Both the position numbers and the translations under genes were made by a program. Positions 1 through 42,145 of a stretch of DNA of 64,000 nt are shown piece after piece (within the stretch, counting starts at the first letter, position 1; each line of letters begins with the position of its first letter). Under the pieces are notes generated by a model. It did not search any database. It was not told where the DNA came from and worked only from the letters and a program-made list of their open reading frames with translations. Source of the DNA: a phage; sequence record PZ019086.1. One strand, given 5' to 3'.

Positions 1-2314
<2,314 letters not shown>

Positions 2315-2342
2315 TATTAAAGCATATTAAAGAGGATTAAAA

Positions 2343-4322
2343 ATGACTTTATTATCTCCGGGCATTGAGCTCAAAGAAACTACGGTTCAAAGCACCGTGG
2401 TTAATAACTCTACTGGTACAGCAGCTTTGGCCGGTAAATTCCAGTGGGGTCCTGCTTTTCAAATCAAACAGGTTACAAATGAAGTAGATTTAGTTAATAC
2501 TTTTGGTCAACCTACAGCTGAAACTGCTGATTATTTTATGTCTGCAATGAATTTCTTACAATATGGAAATGATTTGCGAGTTGTGCGTGCTGTCGATAGA
2601 GATACCGCTAAAAACTCATCTCCGATTGCTGGTAATATTGAATACACTATTTCTACCCCAGGTAGTAACTACGCGGTTGGAGATAAGATCACAGTTAAGT
2701 ATGTTTCAGAAGACATTGAAACGGAAGGTAAAATTACCGAAGTAGATGCTGATGGAAAAATTAAGAAAATTAATATTCCTACTGCAAAAATTATCGCTAA
2801 AGCGAAAGAAGTCGGTGAATACCCAGAACTAGGTTCTAACTGGACCGCGGAAATTTCTTCGTCTTCATCTGGTTTAGCTGCAGTAATAACTCTTGGAAAA
2901 ATTATTACTGATTCTGGTATTTTATTAGCTGAAATTGAAAATGCCGAAGCTGCTATGACAGCGGTTGAATTTCAAACAAATCTCGAAAAATATGGAATTC
3001 CAGGAGTAGTAGCTCTTTATCCAGGCGAGTTGGGCGATAAAATCGAAATTGAAATCGTATCTAAAGCTGACTACGCAAAAGGTGCTTCTGCATTACTTCC
3101 AATTTATCCAGGCGGCGGCACACGCGCATCTACTGCCAAAGCAGTGTTTGGATATGGACCACAAACTGATTCGCAATACGCTATTATAGTTCGTCGTAAT
3201 GATGCTATTATTCAAAGCGTTGTTCTTTCAACAAAGCGTGGTGAAAAAGATATTTACGATAGTAACATCTACATTGATGACTTTTTCGCAAAAGGTGGTT
3301 CAGAATATATTTTTGCAACTGCACAAAACTGGCCAGAAGGCTTCTCTGGAATTTTAACTCTGTCTGGTGGATTATCATCAAATGCTGAAGTAACAGCAGG
3401 AGATTTGATGGAAGCTTGGGACTTCTTTGCTGACCGTGAATCTGTTGACGTTCAGTTGTTTATTGCGGGTTCTTGCGCCGGCGAATCTTTAGAAACAGCA
3501 TCTACTGTCCAAAAACACGTCGTTTCAATTGGTGATGCTCGCCAAGATTGCTTAGTACTGTGCTCACCACCGCGTGAAACTGTAGTTGGAATTCCTGTAA
3601 CTCGTGCTGTTGATAACTTAGTCAATTGGAGAACTGCAGCAGGTTCATACACTGATAATAACTTTAATATCAGTTCAACCTACGCAGCAATTGATGGTAA
3701 CTACAAGTATCAGTACGACAAATATAATGATGTGAATCGTTGGGTTCCATTAGCAGCTGATATTGCTGGTTTGTGTGCAAGAACTGATAACGTTTCTCAG
3801 ACTTGGATGTCTCCAGCCGGTTATAATCGTGGCCAAATTTTGAACGTTATTAAACTTGCTATTGAAACTCGCCAGGCGCAGCGCGACCGTTTATATCAAG
3901 AAGCTATCAACCCAGTAACTGGTACAGGTGGTGATGGTTACGTATTGTATGGTGATAAAACAGCTACTTCTGTTCCTTCTCCATTTGATCGTATTAACGT
4001 TCGTCGTCTGTTTAATATGTTGAAAACGAATATCGGACGTAGTTCAAAATATCGTTTGTTCGAATTAAACAACGCGTTTACTCGTTCATCATTCCGCACA
4101 GAAACTTCCCAGTACTTGCAGGGAATTAAAGCTCTCGGTGGAATTTATGAATATCGTGTAGTTTGCGATACAACAAATAACACTCCGTCAGTAATTGATA
4201 GAAATGAGTTTGTTGCAACATTCTACATCCAACCGGCGCGCAGTATAAATTATATTACTTTGAATTTCGTCGCAACTGCTACTGGTGCAGATTTCGATGA
4301 GTTAACTGGTCTTGCAGGTTAA
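2343..4322 (+). CDS. 18: Tail sheath protein (gp18), 659 aa
   Basis: 659 aa ORF, same length as T4 gp18; position after terminase. Confidence 0.96.
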   Translation: MTLLSPGIELKETTVQSTVVNNSTGTAALAGKFQWGPAFQIKQVTNEVDLVNTFGQPTAETADYFMSAMNFLQYGNDLRVVRAVDRDTAKNSSPIAGNIEYTISTPGSNYAVGDKITVKYVSEDIETEGKITEVDADGKIKKINIPTAKIIAKAKEVGEYPELGSNWTAEISSSSSGLAAVITLGKIITDSGILLAEIENAEAAMTAVEFQTNLEKYGIPGVVALYPGELGDKIEIEIVSKADYAKGASALLPIYPGGGTRASTAKAVFGYGPQTDSQYAIIVRRNDAIIQSVVLSTKRGEKDIYDSNIYIDDFFAKGGSEYIFATAQNWPEGFSGILTLSGGLSSNAEVTAGDLMEAWDFFADRESVDVQLFIAGSCAGESLETASTVQKHVVSIGDARQDCLVLCSPPRETVVGIPVTRAVDNLVNWRTAAGSYTDNNFNISSTYAAIDGNYKYQYDKYNDVNRWVPLAADIAGLCARTDNVSQTWMSPAGYNRGQILNVIKLAIETRQAQRDRLYQEAINPVTGTGGDGYVLYGDKTATSVPSPFDRINVRRLFNMLKTNIGRSSKYRLFELNNAFTRSSFRTETSQYLQGIKALGGIYEYRVVCDTTNNTPSVIDRNEFVATFYIQPARSINYITLNFVATATGADFDELTGLAG

Positions 4323-4979
4323 TTGATTATGGGGCTTCGGCCCCTATTCTCGAGGAAACAAGTGATTATTTCTAAGTTTGTTAAAGTGAAAATTGTACCA
4401 TCAAATTTTAAACATTATCAATCAAAGGGTTATAAATTAACACCTCTTGGAGCGGTTAAACATGGATTTAGGTATTATGAAATTGATGTTAAAGTTGAAG
4501 ACATTAAAGGTAATACCGCGTATGTAAAATGCCGTTGCGATAAATGTGGAATTGAATATAACCAACGCATTGGAAGAAACACTGATATTTGTCGTGATTG
4601 CCGTCATAAAGATAAAATGCGCAATAATTCATATGGTTCCGCGAATAAAGGAAAAACAGTAGAATGTATGCATGGCGTAAATCATCCAAGATGGAACCCA
4701 AATAAATCTGAAATGCGTGAATATATTTCATTGGTATATAAAGAAACTCGTAAGCATAAGAAAATTTGGTCAAAATGGCCAAATGCTGATAAAATAGGAG
4801 TGTGCGGTACAAAAGGTGCTTACCAACTTGATCATAAAGTATCTATCAAATACGGTTTTGATAATTTAATTCCTGCTGAAATAATTGGCGGTATTAATAA
4901 TTTAGAAATAATCACTTGGGAATCTAACCGAGAAAAATCAAAAAGAAATAGTGTAGATCTTTGGGATTTACTAGAATGA
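4323..4979 (+). CDS. Free-standing HNH-family homing endonuclease-like protein (start uncertain; in-frame GTG at 4362 preceded by AGGAAA)
   Basis: C-terminal HNH-like motif (YQLDHK ... NNLEIITWESNREK) and Cys-rich CRCDKCG ... CRDCRHK segment; sits between sheath and tube genes; ORF-track start is TTG and overlaps a GGGGC-TTCG-GCCCC hairpin. Confidence 0.7.
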   Translation: MIMGLRPLFSRKQVIISKFVKVKIVPSNFKHYQSKGYKLTPLGAVKHGFRYYEIDVKVEDIKGNTAYVKCRCDKCGIEYNQRIGRNTDICRDCRHKDKMRNNSYGSANKGKTVECMHGVNHPRWNPNKSEMREYISLVYKETRKHKKIWSKWPNADKIGVCGTKGAYQLDHKVSIKYGFDNLIPAEIIGGINNLEIITWESNREKSKRNSVDLWDLLE

Positions 4980-5005
4980 TTCTAAAGGCCTGTTTCGGCA
5001 GGCCA

Positions 5006-5013
5006 TATAAATA
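5006..5013 (+). promoter_or_regulatory. Late promoter-like TATAAATA (distal) upstream of gene 19
   Basis: Exact TATAAATA in the 18/19 intergenic region. Confidence 0.5.
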
Positions 5014-5064
5014 CACTATATCCTTAATTCTTTAATTCTATATGCCCTAGGTTAAACATAGGGA

Positions 5065-5072
5065 TATAAATA
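5065..5072 (+). promoter_or_regulatory. Late promoter TATAAATA (proximal) upstream of gene 19
   Basis: Exact TATAAATA about 15 nt upstream of gene 19 start, followed by AGAGG RBS. Confidence 0.65.
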
Positions 5073-5086
5073 CTACAGAGGCTAAT

Positions 5087-5578
5087 ATGTTTGTAGATGA
5101 TGTAACACGAGCGTTTGAATCTGGTGATTTTGCTCGACCTAACTTATTCCAAGTAGAAATTTCTTATCTTGGACAAAATTTTACGTTTCAATGCAAAGCC
5201 ACTGCTTTACCAGCTGGTATTGTAGAAAAAATTCCAGTCGGATTTATGAACCGTAAAATTAACGTAGCAGGCGATCGTACATTTGATGACTGGACTGTTA
5301 CAGTAATGAACGATGAGGCACATGATGCTCGCCAGAAGTTTGTTGATTGGCAAAGCATTGCTGCTGGGCAAGGGAACGAAATTACTGGTGGAAAACCAGC
5401 AGAGTATAAAAAGAGCGCTATTGTTCGCCAATATGCTCGTGACGCTAAAACTGTAACAAAAGAAGTCGAAATTAAAGGCCTGTGGCCTACTAACGTGGGT
5501 GAACTTCAATTAGATTGGGATTCAAACAATGAAATCCAAACATTTGAAGTAACTCTTGCTCTCGATTATTGGGAATAA
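5087..5578 (+). CDS. 19: Tail tube protein (gp19), 163 aa
   Basis: 163 aa ORF matching T4 gp19 length and N-terminus MFVDDVTRAFESGDF. Confidence 0.95.
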   Translation: MFVDDVTRAFESGDFARPNLFQVEISYLGQNFTFQCKATALPAGIVEKIPVGFMNRKINVAGDRTFDDWTVTVMNDEAHDARQKFVDWQSIAAGQGNEITGGKPAEYKKSAIVRQYARDAKTVTKEVEIKGLWPTNVGELQLDWDSNNEIQTFEVTLALDYWE

Positions 5579-5610
5579 AATGAATGGGGAGAAATCCCCA
5601 TCCTGCTTAA

Positions 5611-7235
<1,625 letters not shown>

Positions 7236-23792: not shown

Positions 23793-24887
23793 ATGGCAAT
23801 TGTTAAAGAAATAACTGCTGATTTAATTAAAAAGTCCGGTGAGAAAATTTCAGCCGGACAGAGTACTAAATCAGAAGTAGCAACTAAAACATACACTGCC
23901 CAGTTTCCAACTGGGCGTGCTAGTGGTAATGACACTACAGGGGACTTCCAGGTAACAGATCTATATAAGAATGGATTATTATTTACTGCATACAATATGT
24001 CATCTAGGGATTCTGGAAGTCTTAGATCGATGAGATCTAACTACTCTTCTTCATCTTCGAGTATTTTAAGTACAGCTAGAAACACTATTAGTAGTACAGT
24101 ATCAAAACTGTCAAATGGATTAATATCAAACAATAATTCAGGAACAATAAGTAAAGCTCCTGTCGCAAATATTCTTTTACCGAGATCTAAATCTGATGTT
24201 GATACATCATCACATAGATTTAATGATGTTCAAGAAAGTCTTATCAGTAGAGGCGGAGGTACTGCTACTGGTGTGTTAAGTAATATTGCTTCAACTGCAG
24301 TATTTGGGGCACTGGAAAGTATAACACAGGGTATAATGGCTGATAATAATGAACAGATTTATACGACAGCCAGAAGTATGTATGGCGGTGCTGAGAATAG
24401 AACTAAAGTGTTTACATGGGATTTGACTCCACGTTCAACAGAAGATTTGATGGCTATTATCAATATCTATCAATATTTTAACTATTTTTCTTATGGTGAA
24501 ACGGGCAAATCTCAATATGCTGCTGAAATAAAGGGGTATTTAGATGATTGGTATCGTTCTACATTAATTGAACCTTTATCTCCGGAAGACGCGGCTAAAA
24601 ATAAAACACTATTTGAGAAAATGACATCGAGTTTAACTAACGTTCTAGTAGTTTCAAACCCGACAATTTGGATGGTGAAAAACTTTGGTGCAACATCTAA
24701 GTTTGATGGAAAAACGGAAATATTTGGTCCATGCCAAATACAGAGCATCAGATTTGATAAAACACCTAATGGTAACTTTAACGGATTAGCTATTGCTCCA
24801 AACCTCCCTAGTACATTTACTCTTGAGATTACTATGAGAGAAATTATCACGTTAAACCGTGCTTCTTTATATGCGGGGACTTTTTAA
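23793..24887 (+). CDS. 48: Baseplate tail tube cap gp48, 364 aa
   Basis: 364 aa; synteny. Confidence 0.93.
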   Translation: MAIVKEITADLIKKSGEKISAGQSTKSEVATKTYTAQFPTGRASGNDTTGDFQVTDLYKNGLLFTAYNMSSRDSGSLRSMRSNYSSSSSSILSTARNTISSTVSKLSNGLISNNNSGTISKAPVANILLPRSKSDVDTSSHRFNDVQESLISRGGGTATGVLSNIASTAVFGALESITQGIMADNNEQIYTTARSMYGGAENRTKVFTWDLTPRSTEDLMAIINIYQYFNYFSYGETGKSQYAAEIKGYLDDWYRSTLIEPLSPEDAAKNKTLFEKMTSSLTNVLVVSNPTIWMVKNFGATSKFDGKTEIFGPCQIQSIRFDKTPNGNFNGLAIAPNLPSTFTLEITMREIITLNRASLYAGTF

Positions 24888-25807
24888 TGTATTCTTTAGA
24901 GGAATTTAATAATCAAGCAATAAACGCAGATTTCCAACGTAATAATATGTTTAGCTGCGTTTTTGCGACAACTCCATCAACTAAAAGCTCTTCGTTGATA
25001 AGTTCAATTAGCAACTTTTCTTATAATAACTTGGGTCTAAATTCAGATTGGTTAGGATTGACTCAAGGCGATATTAATCAGGGAATTACCACGCTAATTA
25101 CTGCTGGCACACAAAAACTGATAAGAAAATCAGGGGTTAGTAAATATCTTATTGGTGCCATGAGTCAACGTACAGTTCAAAGTTTATTGGGCTCATTTAC
25201 AGTTGGTACATATTTAATTGACTTCTTTAACATGGCATATAACTCATCTGGATTGATGATATATTCTGTAAAAATGCCAGAGAATAGATTATCCTATGAA
25301 ACTGACTGGAACTATAATTCTCCTAATATTCGTATAACTGGGAGAGAATTAGACCCTTTGGTTATTTCATTTAGGATGGATTCAGAAGCATGTAATTATC
25401 GTGCGATGCAAGACTGGGTTAACGCTGTTCAAGACCCAGTAACTGGATTGCGTGCTTTGCCACAAGATGTCGAGGCAGATATTCAGGTTAATCTTCATGC
25501 TCGTAATGGATTACCTCATACTGCGGTGATGTTCACCGGATGCATTCCAGTGTCAGTGAGCGCTCCTGAGTTATCATATGATGGAGATAACCAAATAACT
25601 ACATTTGATGTTACTTTTGCGTATAGAGTCATGCAGGCTGGGTCGGTTGATAGACAAGCTGCGCTTGAGTGGCTTGAATCTGCTGCTATAAACGGTATTC
25701 AAAGCGTTCTCGGAAATAGTGGAGGTGTTACTGGATTATCTAATTCGCTTTCACGACTTAGTAGATTAGGGGGAACTGCTGGAAGCATTTCCAACATTAT
25801 ACTATGA
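24887..25807 (+). CDS. 54: Baseplate tail tube initiator gp54, 306 aa
   Basis: Follows 48 with ATGA overlap; paralog-like to gp19/gp48. Confidence 0.92.
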   Translation: MYSLEEFNNQAINADFQRNNMFSCVFATTPSTKSSSLISSISNFSYNNLGLNSDWLGLTQGDINQGITTLITAGTQKLIRKSGVSKYLIGAMSQRTVQSLLGSFTVGTYLIDFFNMAYNSSGLMIYSVKMPENRLSYETDWNYNSPNIRITGRELDPLVISFRMDSEACNYRAMQDWVNAVQDPVTGLRALPQDVEADIQVNLHARNGLPHTAVMFTGCIPVSVSAPELSYDGDNQITTFDVTFAYRVMQAGSVDRQAALEWLESAAINGIQSVLGNSGGVTGLSNSLSRLSRLGGTAGSISNIIL

Positions 25808-25855
25808 CGGGAATTGTCAATTCGCAAAGTAAAATATTAGGAGCAATATAACAAT

Positions 25856-25885
25856 GGGGACCTTTCGGTCCCCATGTTTTTATTT
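25856..25885 (+). terminator. Rho-independent terminator after gene 54
   Basis: GGGGACC-TTTC-GGTCCCC hairpin followed by ATGTTTTTATTT. Confidence 0.7.
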
Positions 25886-26170
25886 ACGGAATGAAATAAA
25901 AGCAGCAACTGAAGCAACTAAACTGTCTTCAATATAAACTTCAATTTTTACCGGAGCTTCTGACTCAAATTTGCCTGTTACTACACCTTGGAAAATGCTT
26001 TCAGTCTGTTCTGGCTTTGAAAAATTTTCAGAAGGAAAAATTCCGAACTTTTTATCTGTTCCAAAAATTTTGATAAATTCATCATAAACTGCTTCATTAA
26101 AAGCATTATCAGCAGGAATAACGCCTTCAACTACAAGTTCTTGACCTAAAAAGCGCAAAGAAGATTTCAT
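25880..26170 (-). CDS. Hypothetical protein, 96 aa (54/alt intergenic position)
   Basis: ORF with GAGGA RBS; preceded by an early promoter. Confidence 0.6.
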   Translation of the reverse strand: MKSSLRFLGQELVVEGVIPADNAFNEAVYDEFIKIFGTDKKFGIFPSENFSKPEQTESIFQGVVTGKFESEAPVKIEVYIEDSLVASVAAFISFRK

Positions 26171-26195
26171 TTTGTGTTCCTCATGTTATGTCAGT

Positions 26196-26231
26196 AAGAT
26201 TATTATAACACAACACGAGGGACTTGTAAAC
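26196..26231 (-). promoter_or_regulatory. T4-type early promoter: GTTTACA-N17-TATAAT
   Basis: Minus strand reads GTTTACAAGTCCCTCGTGTTGTGTTATAAT; 53-nt region near-identical to 42093-42145. Confidence 0.7.
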
Positions 26232-28288
26232 TACATCTTGAACTTTTTAGACATTCCGTCGATGTTAACCAAAGAAGCTAAGATTTGAGAAACTTCGTTT
26301 TCCTCTTCTTTTGATTCTTCTACAAGGAATTGATTAAATCCAGCCATTGGACGAACTTCACCAGTTTCCATTAGATGGTCGCCATCATATACCGATTCTT
26401 CTAATTGTTCAGAAGGAGGAACGATTGTGCCTTCGATTAGATACTTGTTATAAGCAGTTTCTTTCATCATGTACGTGCTTACTTTATTAATCTTCAACAA
26501 AATTCCACGCGGTAAAATAACTTCAGCTTCTGATGGAAATCCTGATAAATGACCTGGAACGATAACTTTAATTCGCTCAGCCCCTTTAATTACCATACCT
26601 ACGCTAGTTTCAGCATCTTCATTCGCATAAGCAGAGTGACTACCCATATGCATTAAATCTTCAGCATCAACAGAACCTTCTCCTTCACCAGAAAATACTG
26701 CGCCGGAATCATCTAGAGCCATATAGTTTTTACCATGCTCACCGAAGATATTTGGTTTAAGCGATGTTGATACGAAGTTCTTGAAATAGAACATTTTATT
26801 TTCAATATTATGGCGTAAAGTTTTAAAGGTAACTTCTTGTCCACGATAAAGCGTAGTTCCTGGAGGAAGAACTGAACCTTTAGCGAATGCAGAATCCATT
26901 GTCTCGATGTGTTTAATAGCTCGTTCCATGTATTCTTCACGGGTAGAATCTGGTTTACCCAAGAGGAACGAGTTCATTTCAACATATGAATCTGCACAAT
27001 AATCTTCAATTACATCAGACTCAGCCTGAGTCAGTCCTTTTGGAGTTACTTCGGTGCTTGCATATTCATATGCCTGAGCAGCAGATTCATTAATCAATTT
27101 ATAAATGCCATTCATGACAAATTGAATAATAGCTACTTTTTCGTCTGGTGTGGCTTTAGAACCTTTAACTAAATCATTGATAATTTTCTTAATAACATCA
27201 AAGCTATTAGAAATATTAATGTCAGCGAGATCGCTCAAAATTTTATCGGTTTTATAATCAAAAAATTCTTTATTCTTTAAATATTCTTGAGAACCTTGAT
27301 ATGTTATATCGCTCTGCAGCTTGATAGACGGATCACGTAAACGCGCATGGGCCAATGCAATATGATTTCGGAAGCTTTCTAGTTCATAATCGTTAGATTT
27401 AAAACGAGAAGCACTTCTCATACCACCGATAGCTCCTTTGCCGAAGTTTGAACCAATCTGAATAACACCAGAGTTCATTGGTCCTTCTGCTTTATATACC
27501 GGAACTTTAGATTCAAACTCTTGATATTTCTTAGCGGCGAAGCTATCACCCTGAAGTGAAGCATCGACAGTAGAATATTGAGCTTGTGCTGCTAATCGAC
27601 GACTAATTTTAGTTTTCTGAATAACAGCTTGATCCGTACGCTTATCATTTTCTAAAGCAATAGAAGCGGCAACAGCAACAGCTTTAGGAACAGCATTACC
27701 TGTTTTAACGTCTACATAAACATCACCAACCTTTGATTCAACTTTTGTGAATAACTCAGTTGAAATAGGAGGTACACCTGGAATGTCTTCTAAATTGGCA
27801 TTTTTACGGTAAACCATAATATATGCATACTTTTTATCATAATCCCAGATTTCCTTTAAAAGAACATATCGACCTGCTCCTTTAGTACGTACTAAACGGT
27901 CAGCGATAACTTGCATTTGACGAGCTGCACCGTTTGTTTTACTCTTTAGTACGCGGAATAAGCATGCATCAATTTTATACTGTTTCATTGTCTGAAGAGC
28001 GGTATCAAAAACCGCATTAATGACACCAATTGGATTTCCACCTAAATTTTTAAGTTTAACTAATGATAGCTTTTCATTGACACCTATCATTACGATATGC
28101 ATCATTTTATCGCCTGGCTTAACGTTTTTATTTGTATCACCGCCAGAGGTGTATGTACAAAATCTAAATCCAGGAAGCACACTTTCTTCGCCGGCTTGAA
28201 TAGCAAAAATTTGAGGTATTTTATGCTTAGGATTTAAGTTAACAACCGGCGCCGAAGCGCCGTCAAATAATTCTGTAATAAGTTCCAT
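26231..28288 (-). CDS. Alt-like ADP-ribosyltransferase paralog, 685 aa
   Basis: N-terminus MELITELFD shared with Alt; C-terminal R (TLYRGQ), S-T-S (VSTSL) and E-x-E (EAEV) motifs. Confidence 0.85.
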   Translation of the reverse strand: MELITELFDGASAPVVNLNPKHKIPQIFAIQAGEESVLPGFRFCTYTSGGDTNKNVKPGDKMMHIVMIGVNEKLSLVKLKNLGGNPIGVINAVFDTALQTMKQYKIDACLFRVLKSKTNGAARQMQVIADRLVRTKGAGRYVLLKEIWDYDKKYAYIMVYRKNANLEDIPGVPPISTELFTKVESKVGDVYVDVKTGNAVPKAVAVAASIALENDKRTDQAVIQKTKISRRLAAQAQYSTVDASLQGDSFAAKKYQEFESKVPVYKAEGPMNSGVIQIGSNFGKGAIGGMRSASRFKSNDYELESFRNHIALAHARLRDPSIKLQSDITYQGSQEYLKNKEFFDYKTDKILSDLADINISNSFDVIKKIINDLVKGSKATPDEKVAIIQFVMNGIYKLINESAAQAYEYASTEVTPKGLTQAESDVIEDYCADSYVEMNSFLLGKPDSTREEYMERAIKHIETMDSAFAKGSVLPPGTTLYRGQEVTFKTLRHNIENKMFYFKNFVSTSLKPNIFGEHGKNYMALDDSGAVFSGEGEGSVDAEDLMHMGSHSAYANEDAETSVGMVIKGAERIKVIVPGHLSGFPSEAEVILPRGILLKINKVSTYMMKETAYNKYLIEGTIVPPSEQLEESVYDGDHLMETGEVRPMAGFNQFLVEESKEEENEVSQILASLVNIDGMSKKFKM

Positions 28289-28291
28289 GAT

Positions 28292-30340
28292 TTATCCTTG
28301 AACGAACTTGTAAGGCATGTTTGCGATATCTATGCAAGACGCAATAATTCCAAGAGATGATTCTGCTTTTTGTTTAACATTTGATGAAACAAATGATGCA
28401 AAGTCAACTCTATCTTCTATATCACCTGTCATTGTAACCAATTCACCAGTTTCCATTAAACGGTCACCGTCATAAATTACCGATTCGGTGAGTTCTTCTG
28501 TGGTCATAACTTCAGCTTGAATAAGCTTGTTGTTAGTTCTAACTGTTCCATCGTTGTAAGATGCATCAGTTATTTTATTGACTTTGACCATTAATCCACG
28601 TGGCAAAATGACTTCCATTTCATTTGAAGGTGCTAAACTTCCACCGGGTAAAACAACATTGACTTTATCAGCTCCAGTAATAACCCATCCAATTCCAACT
28701 AAATTATCGCTAGAATTAACAAGCCCTTCATCATTTTTATCGACAGAAATGCTTAGACGCTTTTCATCTGGTAAAACACCCACAGCTGAATCAGTCATCC
28801 AAGTACCAAAAATGTTTGGATATAATGATGTTGATACAAAATTTCTAAAATAAAAAACTCGATTTTTTACCAGTGCTTCATATATTGAAGGTAACATTCG
28901 TTGTGAACGATACAAAGTAATACCTTTTGGTAATCGTTCACCATTTTTAAAGGCTGAATCTAAATTATCAATGGCTTGTTCTATTTCAGGTGCTGTTAAA
29001 ATACTTGTACGCTCATCTGGATTATATAATCCCAAAAGAGCATTATTCATGTCTACATATCCTGAACCTACATATTCACGAATTCCGCGTTTTTGCGCTG
29101 GTGTGTATTTAGATGAATCTTTATTTTCGACTATAGGATGTAATGACCATCCAGCGGTAAGAGCATATCCACGTAATTCTCTTCGAATAATCTTTGTTTT
29201 TATTGCATTCCAAGAATTTTGTACTAACTCATTTGCAGCATCTTGGTTTAAATGCGAATGTCTGTTAATATTTCTTTCAAACCAAGCACCTTTATATTTT
29301 TCTAAAGTATCATCGACGATAGAAGCAATAGTTTCTAAAGTTTTTATTGAAGTAATAGATTCTTTTCGTAATTTTTCTAAAGCTTTATTTTTTATTTCTG
29401 CATTAACGTCAGATTCTTTATCTTCAGGAATTATAGAAGCTTCTCTGAATGCCATTCCAGCTGTAACACTATTAAGAGCATTCTCTAATGCAAATCCTGA
29501 AGTAGAAATAACAGTTAATTCGTTAGCATCAGAAATTAAAGGCGCGTCGGCGGGTTTATTTAATTCTGCTGCTGAAGCCTCAAATTTTTGAAACATTGGT
29601 GTTTCAAATCTAGAAGATTCTAATGATTGACTTTGTGCAATTGCTCTACGGGAAATTTTAACTTTAACGATTACAGCTTGGTCAGAACGCTTATCATTTT
29701 CTTGTGCAATAGATGCTGCAATTGCCTCATTTTTAGTTACTTGAGCTCCAGTATCTTTATTGATATAAACATCACCGACCTTCGATTCAACTTTAGTAAA
29801 GAGCTCGGTACTAATTTCCGGAACTCCTGGAATGTCTTCTAGTGATACATTTTTGCGATGTATAAGAATATATGCATACTTTTTATCATAATCCCAGAGT
29901 TCCTTAAGAAGGACGTATCTGCCACCTGAACGACTACGGATAAGTCTATCAGCAATAACTTGAATTTGTCGAGCTTGACCAGCAGTTTTAGACTTAAGAA
30001 TACGAAGCATGCAGGCATCAATTTTATACTGGCGCATCGTCTGCATTGCAACAGTAAAAACTGAATTGATGTAATTAATTGGGCTTGGACCGAGACCTTT
30101 TAATTTAGCAATTGAACCTTTAGCAGTTAATGTAAAAGGAACAATATGCATCATTTTATCACCCATTTTTAAATCGCGATTAGTATCACCTCCAGATGTA
30201 TAGGTACATAAACGAAAGCCTGGTTGTTCAATTGCATCATCAACGTGAACTGAAAAAATTTGTGGTATTTTCTTCTTTGGATTTAAGTTTGTAATCGGAA
30301 GAGTAGTATCTTCGTCAAATAATTCTGTAATAAGTTCCAT
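28292..30340 (-). CDS. alt: Alt ADP-ribosyltransferase, about 682 aa
   Basis: Matches remembered T4 Alt N-terminus MELITELFDEDTTLPITNL; R/STS/ExE motifs (TLYRSQ, VSTSL, EMEV); minus-strand late promoter just upstream. Confidence 0.93.
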   Translation of the reverse strand: MELITELFDEDTTLPITNLNPKKKIPQIFSVHVDDAIEQPGFRLCTYTSGGDTNRDLKMGDKMMHIVPFTLTAKGSIAKLKGLGPSPINYINSVFTVAMQTMRQYKIDACMLRILKSKTAGQARQIQVIADRLIRSRSGGRYVLLKELWDYDKKYAYILIHRKNVSLEDIPGVPEISTELFTKVESKVGDVYINKDTGAQVTKNEAIAASIAQENDKRSDQAVIVKVKISRRAIAQSQSLESSRFETPMFQKFEASAAELNKPADAPLISDANELTVISTSGFALENALNSVTAGMAFREASIIPEDKESDVNAEIKNKALEKLRKESITSIKTLETIASIVDDTLEKYKGAWFERNINRHSHLNQDAANELVQNSWNAIKTKIIRRELRGYALTAGWSLHPIVENKDSSKYTPAQKRGIREYVGSGYVDMNNALLGLYNPDERTSILTAPEIEQAIDNLDSAFKNGERLPKGITLYRSQRMLPSIYEALVKNRVFYFRNFVSTSLYPNIFGTWMTDSAVGVLPDEKRLSISVDKNDEGLVNSSDNLVGIGWVITGADKVNVVLPGGSLAPSNEMEVILPRGLMVKVNKITDASYNDGTVRTNNKLIQAEVMTTEELTESVIYDGDRLMETGELVTMTGDIEDRVDFASFVSSNVKQKAESSLGIIASCIDIANMPYKFVQG

Positions 30341-30363
30341 CATAGCCTCTCTAGTGTTTATTC

Positions 30364-30371
30364 TATTTATA
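30364..30371 (-). promoter_or_regulatory. Late promoter TATAAATA (minus strand) upstream of alt
   Basis: Plus-strand TATTTATA, i.e. TATAAATA on the minus strand, about 20 nt upstream of alt start. Confidence 0.6.
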
Positions 30372-30392
30372 AAATTAAAGGCCCGAAGGCCT

Positions 30393-30581
30393 TTAATAAT
30401 CTATTGGTAAGAGAGTACGGTATATTTCAAACTTTGGGCCTTTTTCGTAGGCATCAAATGTTTCTGTAAATTTATTATAAGCATATGCATCTACAAATTC
30501 GAGAACGATTTGTGATACAGAAGTAGAAACATCTCCACCTTCTTTTTGAGCAACGACAATTGTTTCTAAGTAAGCTTTCAT
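30393..30581 (-). CDS. Hypothetical small protein, 62 aa, coupled to gene 30 stop
   Basis: ATG overlaps gene 30 TGA (ATGA); no domain recognised. Confidence 0.45.
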   Translation of the reverse strand: MKAYLETIVVAQKEGGDVSTSVSQIVLEFVDAYAYNKFTETFDAYEKGPKFEIYRTLLPIDY

Positions 30582-32041
30582 AGACCAGTTACCTCATGAA
30601 AATCACCAAATACATCCTCGAATGTATTAGCTTTAGTTTTATCTTCACGTAAACGAATCGCAATTGGAAGAAATAATTTTACGTAATCAGTGCGGCCATC
30701 AGATTTTAACCAACCATTGCATTCGCACTCTAGAATTTTTCCAATATAATAATTTTGGTTTTCCATAATGCGAGTACGGTCAAGTTCATGCGATTTTACA
30801 CCGGCTTTATCTTTTAAGCCTGAACCAGCATTTACTTTAATTTTTCCACACTCTGATTCAAGAATAAATCCACCTGCTTTAGTAGGGTCTTTACGATGAG
30901 GATAAATTCCTACAATTTTTAAATCAACATCAATTACTTCTTTAAATTTATAGAGATTTTTTGAACGAGAATTTTCCCATAATCCATCGGTATTTTTGAG
31001 AATAATACCTTCAAGACCTTGGTCAATATACTTTTTATAAATTACCTTAGCTTCATCTAGGTTATTTACTACCTGGTTTTCAATTAAAATTACTTTATCA
31101 TATCCTGATGTCATTTGTTCTAGTTTAGAAAAACGTACATCATATTTTAAACGAAACGCCGGAAGACCATATATTTCTACCAACGGGACATAATCCCAGA
31201 CCTGAAACTTCATGCATTGAGCTTCTTTTTCAGAAATGGTTCCTTTTAAGGATTTATTGGCGATTCCATTAGAAGTAGTACGAGATTCTGCTACTTCGGC
31301 GAATTCTTTAGCTTTACTAATTTCAGGATAAGCATCAAAAAGAAAATCTAGGCCTTCTGGTTCCTTTTCAACTTGCTCATGGTATACCAATTCGCCATCA
31401 ATTAACACACCTTCTGGATGAATCTGGCGGGCTTCAGCAGTCATTTTGATTAACTCTTCCTTGAGAAGATCTAATCCTAGATATTCATTACCGGCTCGTG
31501 ATAAAAGACGAACATCATCTAATTCATCACCTCGGACTTCAGCAAAACACCGAGCTCCATCTGCTTTTAACTGCGCGAAGGCTGGAAATTTGATATTCTT
31601 ACTAATGCCTTTTTCATCATAAGAACTTGCCAGCATTTGAGGTTGTTCAGGAATTAAACCTGGCCAAACTTTGTTTGCAATAGATACTGAAGCACCGCAT
31701 TCAAGGTCTCGCATCATAACTCGACGCAAAACTTCAACATCATCCTTTTTACCATCAGTGATATATCCAGTTAATTCCTCAATTGCAGCATTTCCAGTCA
31801 ATTTCCGAGTAGCTAACGTGAATTCAATGAAGTCAAGCATATCGGTAATAGTCAGCATTCCAAAACTCTGGGTAGCAATACCAGGCTTAGGCCATTTCTT
31901 AATATAATACTGTAACCCACGAGAATAAGTCAGACGATATACCCGTTTAAGCAATTCATTATCTTTATTCTTTTCAAGAATTGCTTGCTTCTGCTTAGTT
32001 GATCCAATAGATGCTATTTCATTCAGAATTTTAAGAATCAT
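30578..32041 (-). CDS. 30: ATP-dependent DNA ligase (gp30), 487 aa
   Basis: 487 aa; adenylation motif KADGAR; matches T4 ligase length. Confidence 0.95.
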   Translation of the reverse strand: MILKILNEIASIGSTKQKQAILEKNKDNELLKRVYRLTYSRGLQYYIKKWPKPGIATQSFGMLTITDMLDFIEFTLATRKLTGNAAIEELTGYITDGKKDDVEVLRRVMMRDLECGASVSIANKVWPGLIPEQPQMLASSYDEKGISKNIKFPAFAQLKADGARCFAEVRGDELDDVRLLSRAGNEYLGLDLLKEELIKMTAEARQIHPEGVLIDGELVYHEQVEKEPEGLDFLFDAYPEISKAKEFAEVAESRTTSNGIANKSLKGTISEKEAQCMKFQVWDYVPLVEIYGLPAFRLKYDVRFSKLEQMTSGYDKVILIENQVVNNLDEAKVIYKKYIDQGLEGIILKNTDGLWENSRSKNLYKFKEVIDVDLKIVGIYPHRKDPTKAGGFILESECGKIKVNAGSGLKDKAGVKSHELDRTRIMENQNYYIGKILECECNGWLKSDGRTDYVKLFLPIAIRLREDKTKANTFEDVFGDFHEVTGL

Positions 32042-32307
32042 TGTTCATCCTTCAGAGTTTGATTTACAGCTCTATTATAAATCAATTCATCATTAAGCTC
32101 AGTTAAAGACCTATGATATGTAGTTCTAACTTTATTTCCTTGCATCCAGTGCTTGATATAAATGAAACCTTGCTCTACACATTTTTTAAAAATTCGTTCG
32201 TCTTTTTGAGCTCGGAATTCTGGATTACATCTAAAGAATTGATTTACGTGACCGTAATCACGTGTAGTATTACCTTCATTTTCATAAATAGTGTGAACGA
32301 CAAACAT
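32038..32307 (-). CDS. Hypothetical protein (T4 30.1 position), 89 aa
   Basis: ORF coupled to neighbours on the same strand. Confidence 0.6.
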   Translation of the reverse strand: MFVVHTIYENEGNTTRDYGHVNQFFRCNPEFRAQKDERIFKKCVEQGFIYIKHWMQGNKVRTTYHRSLTELNDELIYNRAVNQTLKDEQ

Positions 32308-33146
32308 TAGAATGCTCCTTGGAAAATATTATCACCGCTAGTAGGTCTATTATACAAATACTCTATGCCACCAGGTTTAATATAGTTCCATGTCTGAAAC
32401 GGATGTGTCTGATATGGATGATATAGATGATTATAAGGATTAAATCCAGGCGTTCTCCAGGTAGTGTTCCAAGGAAAAGAATCGTTTTTAACCATCTTCT
32501 CAATTAAATCTTTTATAGCTTTTTCACTATCAAAACTTTCTTTATTTTCCTTTGGTGAAAAAAGCTTATTTTCTACATCATTCCATGTATAAACTCGCTG
32601 CGCAGTTTTTGGAATATTGTCACGCTCTCCTCGAGCCATCCAATAAACCGGAACATTTAATATTTCACTCGCATGATCGCAGTGGTGAGCAAGATCGTCA
32701 ATATAACAAATTACGTTATATTTCTCTTTTGCCTTTTTAAACAACTCTTCTTTTGAAGAATCATGACCACACATCATTACTTCTGAGAAGGCACCAGGAA
32801 AAAGAGCATTCAAATTAAATTGACGATTCAACAGAGCGTCAATAGAATCACCCAATGCTGTAACAGCTACAAAATTATAATCTTCTTTTAATTTGTTAAT
32901 TACACACAGGGCATCTTTATATGGAGACAAGTAACGAATAAAATCTGATCGATTGTATTTTTCAATTAGCTTGACACCGAGTTCTTCATCGCAATTAAAG
33001 AGTTTACCTGGAGAAATAAATTTCTCATCTTGGATCATTTTTAAAATATGTTCTAACGGAAGATTATATTTCTGAGCAAAATAAGGAAGGCCTGATTGCC
33101 AGCTTAAACATACTCCATCAATATCAGTTAAAATAGTAGGCTTCAT
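32307..33146 (-). CDS. HAD-superfamily phosphatase-like protein (T4 30.2 position), 279 aa
   Basis: N-terminal DxDGV motif (LTDIDGV) typical of HAD hydrolases and 5-prime nucleotidases. Confidence 0.7.
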   Translation of the reverse strand: MKPTILTDIDGVCLSWQSGLPYFAQKYNLPLEHILKMIQDEKFISPGKLFNCDEELGVKLIEKYNRSDFIRYLSPYKDALCVINKLKEDYNFVAVTALGDSIDALLNRQFNLNALFPGAFSEVMMCGHDSSKEELFKKAKEKYNVICYIDDLAHHCDHASEILNVPVYWMARGERDNIPKTAQRVYTWNDVENKLFSPKENKESFDSEKAIKDLIEKMVKNDSFPWNTTWRTPGFNPYNHLYHPYQTHPFQTWNYIKPGGIEYLYNRPTSGDNIFQGAF

Positions 33147-41240: not shown

Positions 41241-41590
41241 TTAGAAAGGTCCTGGATGTCTTCTGCGAACTTGTTGAAGGAGTTGTTGATTTGTTTTTCA
41301 ACCAATCCTGGCTTATGAGCCACCACATCCGCCTTCTTTGCGTCTTTGCGCAGTTTTTCATTTTCACGCTCAATAGCAGCAATTGCCTCACGATTTTTAT
41401 TATTCATCGCATCAATATAATTATACTGAATTCGCAAATTATTTAATGCTAAAGCGTTTTCATTGGCTGTTTTTGTAATTTCAGTAACCGATGTTTCTAA
41501 TCTTTCTACCTTATTTTTTAAAATAATAGATGTTCCGCCAAATGCTATTACAAGTAATAGCAATCCAGCTGTAAAATTACTTACATGCAT
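41237..41590 (-). CDS. N-terminal TM plus coiled-coil protein, probable i-spanin, 117 aa
   Basis: Hydrophobic helix LLLLVIAFGGTSIIL followed by a charged coiled-coil-like region; paired with the downstream lipoprotein. Confidence 0.65.
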   Translation of the reverse strand: MHVSNFTAGLLLLVIAFGGTSIILKNKVERLETSVTEITKTANENALALNNLRIQYNYIDAMNNKNREAIAAIERENEKLRKDAKKADVVAHKPGLVEKQINNSFNKFAEDIQDLSK

Positions 41591-42084
41591 AAAGTTTTAA
41601 TAACCTCTACAATATCGTCTTGAGAAAGACCGTTAATTAAAATATGATGTTCAGCCGGAGATTTAGAAATTTTAAAGCATGCCTCAACATCTTCTGCCAT
41701 ATCCGATGCGCTACGATTTGGATTACTAATTCCAAGACGATGTTTTCCCGTTAAAGGATTAACGATGATATAGCATTTACAGTTGTTAATATGAACATTA
41801 GGTTGAGTCTGATTAATGAACACATCGCAATCATATTTCGCAAGCTGATTTTCTAAAAAGACTTTCATCTCCTCAACCGCATCAGGAAGCATATCGCGGG
41901 CTTGCTCAAGACGACGATTTCGATATTCTTTAATGGTCGTTTTCCGCTTGACTTGCTTAGCTAAATCTTTCTTAAGATCGGTGATATATCCAACTCGACG
42001 ATTTCCTTTAAATACAGAAATCCCATCTGTAGTATCACCGTATGCTTCAACGACCATCTCAGTAGTAATAAGCTGTAAATCCAT
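41581..42084 (-). CDS. alc: Alc (transcription termination on cytosine-containing DNA), about 167 aa
   Basis: Length and position between the pseT.x ORFs and rnlA as in T4; preceded by an early promoter. Confidence 0.8.
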   Translation of the reverse strand: MDLQLITTEMVVEAYGDTTDGISVFKGNRRVGYITDLKKDLAKQVKRKTTIKEYRNRRLEQARDMLPDAVEEMKVFLENQLAKYDCDVFINQTQPNVHINNCKCYIIVNPLTGKHRLGISNPNRSASDMAEDVEACFKISKSPAEHHILINGLSQDDIVEVIKTLCM

Positions 42085-42109
42085 CATAAAGTCCTCATGT
42101 TATGTCAGT

Positions 42110-42145
42110 AAGACTACTATAACACAACACGAGGGACTTGTAAAC
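42110..42145 (-). promoter_or_regulatory. T4-type early promoter GTTTACA-N17-TATAGT upstream of alc
   Basis: Second copy of the 53-nt promoter/leader element (51/53 identical to 26179-26231). Confidence 0.65.

Follow-up and report, generated by a model that had tools for sequence, protein, structure and literature searches.

Alt of bacteriophage T4 is a prohead-core protein present in ~40 copies and injected together with the DNA. The prohead protease gp21 cuts 6 N-terminal (ITE-6) and 63 C-terminal (LTE-619) residues off it, as determined by mass spectrometry, leaving a mature protein of 68.2 kDa (PMC5694885), and its gene is a late gene (PMC9697503). Reviews place Alt in the Alt/VIP2 clade of R-S-E ADP-ribosyltransferases (ARTs) and stress its delivery by the phage head. 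Here we analysed a 64,000-nucleotide (nt) stretch of phage DNA (record PZ019086.1; the whole stretch is called the window below), in which two adjacent minus-strand open reading frames (ORFs) of the Alt family, copy A and copy B, lie within a Tequatrovirus (T-even), T2-like genome segment. Their best explanation, which we hold to be probable, is a late operon of a T2-like Tequatrovirus encoding two paralogous, injected ARTs, Alt and 'Alt2', with different targets.

Several described systems share parts of this design. The C3/VIP2/iota/Vis toxins (PF03496) are secreted or delivered via binary-toxin or type III secretion routes, whereas the Alt family is delivered by the phage head and has its own N-terminal domain (N-domain) and protease-removed propeptides. 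ModA and ModB of T4 are likewise phage R-S-E ARTs modifying host transcription and translation proteins, but they are small (~200 amino acids, aa), early and unpackaged, and lack the N-domain and propeptides. The internal proteins IPI-IPIII of T-even phages, which have non-essential anti-host roles, resemble the Alts in having a variable injected cargo and, at the N-terminus, a conserved targeting peptide that gp21 cuts at L/I-x-E, and their locus is polymorphic, combining a conserved capsid-targeting leader with variable cargo. They differ in being small and non-enzymatic and in having a 10-residue leader of other sequence, whereas the Alts add a 235-aa conserved domain and a C-terminal propeptide.

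Tandem alt paralogues were previously noted by Nolan et al. 2006, as in Aeromonas phage 44RR, where ORF187c is an Alt paralogue in tandem at the same locus, and the tandem pair is already known at the annotation level in hundreds of related phage genomes. The copy B gene is annotated as 'ADP-ribosyltransferase Alt2' in the BASEL phage Bas35 WilhelmHis (bas35_0031); it is the same gene as CDS0266 of T2 and gp189 of Shigella phage Sf21, the record of which notes 'distinct from T4 Alt ... N-terminus is similar to phage T4 Alt.-1', and in RefSeq it is the second of two 'Alt-like RNA polymerase ADP-ribosyltransferase' entries. The annotated Alt2 genes have 97-99.7% protein identity to copy B, the same tandem arrangement and the same 3-nt spacer, with no substantive difference, while Alt arrays elsewhere in the Tevenvirinae differ in copy number (1-3), effector combination and lineage-specific N-domains. 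No functional study of Alt2 was found in the literature searched. The present analysis adds the predicted C-terminal cleavage site and propeptide of copy B, the strength of purifying selection on it, its T4 stump with the deletion confined to a minority of phages, and the exchange of modules.

Two diverged Alt paralogues in tandem

Transcription on the minus strand runs from gp30 through alt.1, copy A and copy B to alt.-3, and the gene order around the pair is the same as in T4 (30 - alt.1 - alt ... alt.-3 - 54). Many T-even phages match the 4.8-kb region at 96-97% identity, the top match being Shigella phage pSs-1. The two ORFs are separated by 3 nt, as a reading made earlier from the sequence alone (the sequence-only reading) had stated: the stop codon of copy A (TAA, 28294-28292) is followed by ATC and then by the ATG of copy B at 28288. 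The parts of the two genes, with isoelectric points (pI) and the predicted local distance difference test scores (pLDDT) of their models, are as follows.

28292..30340, minus strand: copy A, T4 Alt orthologue, 682 aa (ORF called mechanically as 28292..30343, 683 aa)
30323..30340, minus strand: copy A N-terminal propeptide MELITE, its gp21 site ITE-6 mapped experimentally in T4
29621..30322, minus strand: copy A basic alpha/beta N-domain, residues 7-240, pI 9.5
29111..29620, minus strand: copy A all-helical middle domain, residues 241-410
28484..29110, minus strand: copy A ART domain, residues 411-619, ending at LTE-619
28907-28909, minus strand: copy A R478
28826-28834, minus strand: copy A S503-T504-S505
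28613-28621, minus strand: copy A E574-M-E576
28484-28492, minus strand: copy A LTE-619, C-terminal gp21 site mapped in T4
28292..28483, minus strand: copy A acidic C-terminal propeptide, residues 620-682, pI 4.2, low pLDDT, with the stop codon
26231..28288, minus strand: copy B ('Alt2'), full-length, 685 aa
28271..28288, minus strand: copy B N-terminal propeptide MELITE, predicted gp21 site ITE-6
27569..28270, minus strand: copy B basic N-domain, residues 7-240, pI 9.7
27044..27568, minus strand: copy B middle domain, all-helical, residues 241-415, with no sequence relationship to that of copy A
26396..27043, minus strand: copy B ART domain, residues 416-631, ending at LEE-631
26843-26845, minus strand: copy B R482
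26762-26770, minus strand: copy B S507-T508-S509
26522-26530, minus strand: copy B E587-A-E589
26396-26404, minus strand: copy B LEE-631, predicted C-terminal gp21 site
26231..26395, minus strand: copy B acidic C-terminal propeptide, residues 632-685, pI 4.4, pLDDT <50, with the stop codon

The two proteins are 41% identical (BLASTP, E = 2e-157), and both match PHROG 802, 'Alt-like RNA polymerase ADP-ribosyltransferase', end to end (copy A over residues 1-681, 8.8e-263; copy B over 1-685, 1.4e-255), so that copies A and B are tandem, diverged paralogues of the Alt family, as the sequence-only reading had claimed. Homologues of Alt carry PF26846 and PF03496, and the PF03496 profile scored 116.4 bits (1.3e-33) with copy A and 72.9 bits (2.9e-20) with copy B, at a cut-off of 23.4 bits. 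The divergence is distributed unevenly, namely, in copy B numbering, 57-77% identity over residues 1-240, 8-20% over residues 241-420, the central region already described as diverged, 21-38% over residues 421-631 in the ART part and 36% over the C-terminal tail (632-685). Recent gene conversion between the copies was rejected, the DNA identity of the N-terminal parts being only ~73%.

The R, S-T-S and E-x-E motifs of ARTs, loss of which in the upstream copy had been a concern, are kept in both copies and survive careful alignment, also with 55-57 distant representatives; in alignments comprising 27, 40 and 57 members of the family, the columns of the catalytic arginine, STS and ExE show either no variation or a conservation of at least 90%. 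The structure of copy B as modelled with AlphaFold2 (pLDDT 77, predicted template modelling score 0.70) matched solved ARTs in Foldseek searches, with 7e-7 to the Vis toxin, and copy B has the ART fold of the R-S-E clade (PF03496). A search of the PDB with the copy B sequence as sole query gave no match, while a profile search reached C3-like and binary-toxin ARTs there.

Copy A is the orthologue of T4 Alt (NP_049811), a NAD+:arginine mono-ADP-ribosyltransferase packaged in the head, with 662 of the 682 residues identical (97%), the same neighbours and the same position of the late promoter. The ORF sizes of 683-685 aa given at first hold for the ORFs as called; the real start of copy A is most likely the second ATG, at 30340, giving a protein of 682 aa beginning with MELITE, because the T4 annotation, the published ITE-6 numbering and the spacing of a GAGG Shine-Dalgarno sequence all fit it better. 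Copy B has the same five-part architecture as T4 Alt, with the R-S-ExE motif and a gp21 site at either end (predicted in copy B), and differs from it in overall sequence (41% identity), in an unrelated middle domain and in different ART loops, including the ADP-ribosylating turn-turn (ARTT). Both proteins follow a common three-domain plan, in which a 6-residue propeptide ending in I-T-E is followed by a basic alpha/beta domain of ~235 aa, a helical middle domain, a C3/VIP2/Vis-like R-S-ExE ART and an acidic disordered tail behind L-x-E.

Effector modules and proposed host targets

Dhakavirus vB_EcoM-E33, like the window, has tandem full-length Alts at the same locus, in its case three paralogues of 631, 693 and 707 aa, of which the third (E33_3) carries a module of the copy B type and the second (E33_2) one of the T2 Alt type. 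The genes compared are:

512-2407 of the compared E33 sequence: E33 Alt copy 1
2416-4497 of the compared E33 sequence: E33 Alt copy 2 (E33_2)
4501-6624 of the compared E33 sequence: E33 Alt copy 3 (E33_3)
1404-3497 of the compared T2 sequence: T2 first Alt, 697 aa

The first E33 Alt is without the conserved YDGDxLMETGE C-terminal propeptide. The N-terminal ~240 aa of the three E33 copies are 52-82% identical among themselves, and over residues 1-180 only 27-49% identical to the Tequatrovirus copies; between copy A of the window and that of T2, by contrast, identity is 100% for residues 1-180 and 98% for residues 181-240. The parts behind the N-domain follow another pattern. The T2 first Alt is 98-100% identical to T4-type Alt over its first 240 aa but 19-67% over 241-600 and, with a non-synonymous divergence (dN) of 0.21 from it, is an allele distinct from T4 Alt, while its ART domain is 92-97% identical in aa sequence to that of E33_2; the best match of copy B is E33_3 (35-75%), and the third Alt of E33 is also the nearest relative of its middle domain. 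At the DNA level, copy A of the window shares 94.8% identity with T2 Alt over nt 1-815 and loses the similarity beyond that point, and T2 Alt and E33_2 are 80% identical over nt 681-1937 in the module, with no DNA match between their N-domains.

Thus the N-terminal ~240 aa track the phage lineage, and the middle and ART domains track 'types'. Module exchange is seen in that the effector modules of T2 Alt and E33_2 are far more alike than their N-domains (only 37-44% identical) or the flanking proteins (only 57-67% identical), and, judged from these comparisons, at least four 'middle domain + ART' modules have been swapped between phages and between genera, with the domain boundary as the point of exchange and the lineage-specific N-terminal part as the chassis. 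Since the effector module of T2 is that of E33 copy 2, the T2 'Alt' and the T4 'Alt' may be functionally non-equivalent. A polymorphic-toxin pattern, with the N-domain joined to unrelated warheads, was rejected: 55 of the 57 long representatives carry PF03496, with no other Pfam domain, and the partners of the N-domain vary only in the kind of ART and in the middle domain that goes with it.

The ARTT turn is a substrate-recognition element in C3-like ARTs. Ahead of ExE this turn is aromatic in copy B (SGFPS-EAE) versus aliphatic in copy A (SLAPSN-EME), and the phosphate-nicotinamide (PN) loop differs between the copies as well. Once injected with the DNA, both proteins would mono-ADP-ribosylate arginines of host proteins, arginine being the predicted acceptor because the E-x-E motif marks arginine-specific enzymes. 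Copy A presumably acts as T4 Alt does, including on Arg265 of RNA polymerase alpha, because of its 97% identity to that enzyme, and the two copies would most likely act on different host proteins, because their middle domains and ART loops are almost unrelated. The module pattern and the ARTT difference together argue for distinct substrate ranges, without proving them.

Alternatively, copy B could be a redundant or dosage copy, packaged and aimed at virtually the same targets, RNA polymerase alpha Arg265 among them, in which case the pair would only raise the injected dose or add robustness. The architecture, catalytic motif, propeptides and operon common to both copies agree with such a role, as do the promiscuity of T4 Alt in vitro and the fact that T4, without copy B, still carries out the alteration reaction. 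A pure duplicate, however, is expected to remain similar or to vanish, and here the copies share only 8-20% identity over the middle domain and 21-38% over the ART part, they have different ARTT and PN loops, both copies are under strong purifying selection in ~400 genomes, and effector 'types' have been exchanged independently between genera, with up to three per genome, all of which makes a mere dosage role unlikely.

Two injected enzymes with different targets remain the preferred reading, and a wider one can be built on it, which we offer tentatively while leaning somewhat against it. The alt locus of T-even phages would be an exchangeable array of injected effectors, in which a lineage-specific chassis for head packaging, i.e. 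propeptides plus basic N-domain, is recombined at about aa 230-270 with at least four modules moving between genera, and Alt2 would be an injected ART with a host target of its own, which might be a factor of defence or translation and not RNA polymerase; Alt2 would then never have been characterised because the T4 laboratory model deleted it.

Probable packaging of copy B, its selection and its loss in T4

The N-terminus common to both proteins, MELITELFD, in which an I-x-E site of the prohead-protease type had been pointed out, does contain ITE-6, the mapped gp21 site of T4 Alt (PMC5694885). Sites for gp21 are present at both ends of both proteins, ITE-6 and LTE-619 in copy A and ITE-6 and LEE-631 (predicted) in copy B, where LEE-631 aligns with LTE-619 of T4 and a conserved SVYDGDxLMETGE tail lies behind it; the computed mass of copy A residues 7-619, 68.2 kDa, checks the numbering. 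Across 57 distant representatives the P1 glutamates corresponding to E6 and E631 of copy B are at least 90% conserved. In the C-terminal tail the pLDDT drops to <50 from residue 616 in copy A and 630 in copy B, i.e. about the C-terminal cut, and low values are also seen at the N-terminus, over 4 residues in A and 10 in B. Both copies combine a basic N-domain (pI 9.5-9.7) with an acidic C-terminal propeptide (pI 4.2-4.4). The N-domain (copy B residues 1-240) occurred in only 69 clusters of a library of 1.84 billion proteins, always N-terminally and in proteins of 600-710 aa; it is lineage-specific, and copy B has kept it.

Because both gp21 sites, the propeptides and the features of the N-domain are shared with Alt, copy B is likely to be packaged and processed. 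Both proteins would be taken up into the prohead core by way of their common N-terminal module, proposed for copy A as the head/core-association module, together with the propeptides, and gp21 would trim both ends to give expected mature sizes of 68.2 kDa (A) and 69.1 kDa (B). For copy B we infer, with good support, packaging, injection and a distinct target, and also cleavage and arginine specificity.

Copy B might instead be made late and stay unpackaged, acting in the producing cell like ModA and ModB, for instance on host or phage proteins at a late stage of infection. Late expression is by itself no proof of packaging, and the literature search found no virion proteomics of Alt2 or of two-Alt phages; nevertheless, copy B keeps the N-terminal propeptide with E6, which is invariant in the family alignments, the lineage-tracking N-domain, which is restricted to the Alt protein family and always N-terminal there, and the C-terminal L-x-E with its propeptide, known to matter only for prohead processing, and we therefore consider an unpackaged copy B very improbable.

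Ratios of non-synonymous to synonymous substitution (dN/dS), calculated by the Nei-Gojobori method for five copy B orthologues, were 0.018-0.041 at a synonymous divergence (dS) of 0.10-0.24, below those of T4-type copy A (0.05-0.10); each domain of copy B gave a dN/dS <0.08, and the C-terminal propeptide 0.018. Copy B is under strong purifying selection, and both genes look functional.

The T4 counterparts of copy B, at the same locus position, are the short ORFs alt.-1 and alt.-2. T4 alt.-1 (NP_049810) is identical to copy B residues 1-54 at 53 of 54 positions, and alt.-2 (NP_049809) to residues 62-117 at 54 of 56. T4 is without window positions ~26251-27940 (~1.69 kb), the flanking BLAST alignments overlapping by 9 bp at the junction; of the 3' end of copy B, only the final 6-7 codons (up to 26250) are left in it, at the low-coordinate side of the deletion, and it additionally has a frameshift. 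The T4 annotation explains alt.-1 and alt.-2 by an old duplication that took in the first part of alt. On the strength of their match to copy B together with the ~1.69-kb deletion and the frameshift, they are the stump of a full-length Alt2 and not a partial duplication, remnants of a gene that is intact in the window. The low-coordinate deletion edge (~26250) lies ~20 nt from a 54-bp promoter cassette described below.

Copy B is found at ≥95% identity in ~400 phage records, T2 included (98.2% identity). The whole pair is present in 369 of 504 matching records, and a contiguous T4-type deletion in 91 of ~503, so that Tequatrovirus phages commonly have the pair intact and T4 is exceptional. An assembly artefact or a pseudogene was rejected on this prevalence and on dN/dS. 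In Shigella phage sb4 the alt ORFs are split, probably by sequencing errors and not by decay, because the ligase and gp48 genes are split too; copy A is split in Pu-Krd-SF5. A decaying or catalytically dead duplicate (pseudo-enzyme), which the T4 version, cut to two short ORFs by the frameshift and the 1.69-kb deletion, and the few records with split ORFs might bring to mind, is hardly credible for copy B, because its ORF in the window is intact with all catalytic residues, its model matches ART structures, its dN/dS of 0.02-0.04 lies below that of Alt, and the sb4 splits look like sequencing errors.

Transcription, neighbouring genes and significance

The signals and neighbouring genes of the locus are:

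30371..30364, minus strand: T4-type late promoter TATAAATA, 20-23 nt upstream of the copy A start
28295..28299, minus strand: Shine-Dalgarno sequence AAGGA of copy B, within the final codons of copy A and 7-11 nt ahead of the copy B ATG (28288)
30377..30394, minus strand: terminator-like hairpin AAAGGCC-TTCG-GGCCTTT, then AATTTT (found by eye; the consensus scan did not call it)
26202..26230, minus strand: sigma-70/T4-early-type promoter, TTTACA-17-TATAAT (11/12, with TG), right after the copy B stop
25854..25875, bidirectional: intrinsic terminator between alt.-3 and gene 54, the first good terminator after the alt genes
30578-32041, minus strand: gp30, DNA ligase
30393-30581, minus strand: alt.1, 62 aa
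25880..26170, minus strand: alt.-3 (DUF5498), 96 aa, neighbouring gene and no Alt paralogue
24887-25807, plus strand: gene 54, convergent with the minus-strand alt block

The late promoter at 30371..30364 is the sole perfect match on both strands between 24000 and 33000. The sequence-only reading had located this site correctly and assigned it to the downstream copy alone, which is true in plus-strand coordinates only, copy A being transcriptionally upstream. No perfect TATAAATA was found between the starts of copies A and B in the promoter scan of 24000-33000, nor was a terminator between the copies in the terminator scan. An own perfect late promoter for copy B was rejected, as only 1-mismatch octamers occur, >800 nt upstream and inside copy A. 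Judged from this layout, the single late promoter would serve both alt genes, both being transcribed late from it, and copy B would be translated from its own Shine-Dalgarno sequence. The GC-rich hairpin at 30377..30394 overlaps the alt.1 stop and lies directly upstream of the late promoter; being terminator-like, it may shield the alt operon from upstream early or middle transcription, and a conserved terminator upstream of alt was reported by Nolan et al. 2006.

Downstream, the probable 3' end of the late alt transcript is the terminator at 25854..25875, and late read-through out of the alt operon would reach alt.-3. The promoter at 26230..26202 is predicted to drive alt.-3, which, having a strong early-type promoter of its own, is therefore not merely a third cistron; despite its name alt.-3 is unrelated to Alt as a paralogue. 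The 54-bp early promoter and 5' untranslated region before alt.-3 (26178-26231, minus strand; GTTTACAAGTCCCTCGTGTTGTGTTATAATAATCTTACTGACATAACATGAGGA) recurs at 42092-42145 (minus strand, 96% identity) ahead of an ORF at 41581-42087, and we take this cassette to resemble the 'promoter-early stem-loop' regulatory cassette of T4-type phages. In T4, mutants with a C-terminal extension of Alt.-3 escape the CmdTAC defence system via blocked degradation of CmdA (PMC11618068). Of the other neighbours, alt.1 matches Pfam PF24647, 'Phage blade protein' (1.1e-29), and the gene 54 product has 306 aa here versus 320 aa in T4, as a 1-nt deletion relative to T4 at ~25790-25807 (plus strand; ACATTAATAC to ACATT-ATAC) causes a frameshift that removes the last 14 residues, being either a sequencing error or a genuine variant.

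Several points weigh against a late operon of two injected enzymes with different targets. Sequence cannot reveal target specificity, and since T4 Alt can label as many as 27 proteins in vitro, A and B could have considerable overlap in their substrates. The literature search found no proteomic or biochemical paper on copy B. Late-promoter-like octamers with 1 mismatch lie within copy A at 29113 and 29765, so an internal mRNA start for copy B is possible. Finally, copy B has been lost from T4 as well as from 90 further records, and even Alt is non-essential, so any role of copy B must be conditional.

The nature of the pair follows directly from homology and holds nothing surprising to a T4 specialist. 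Alt is, however, the textbook case of a phage-injected host-reprogramming enzyme, and all of its biochemistry comes from T4, which lost the second gene, whereas in the databases an intact, strongly conserved Alt2 is present in most T2/T4-like phages, and three Alts occur in some relatives; the repertoire of injected enzymes thus exceeds that of the T4 model. The phage group concerned is much used and includes many therapy candidates, and if Alt2 has a target of its own, it would represent a new host-takeover or counter-defence activity.

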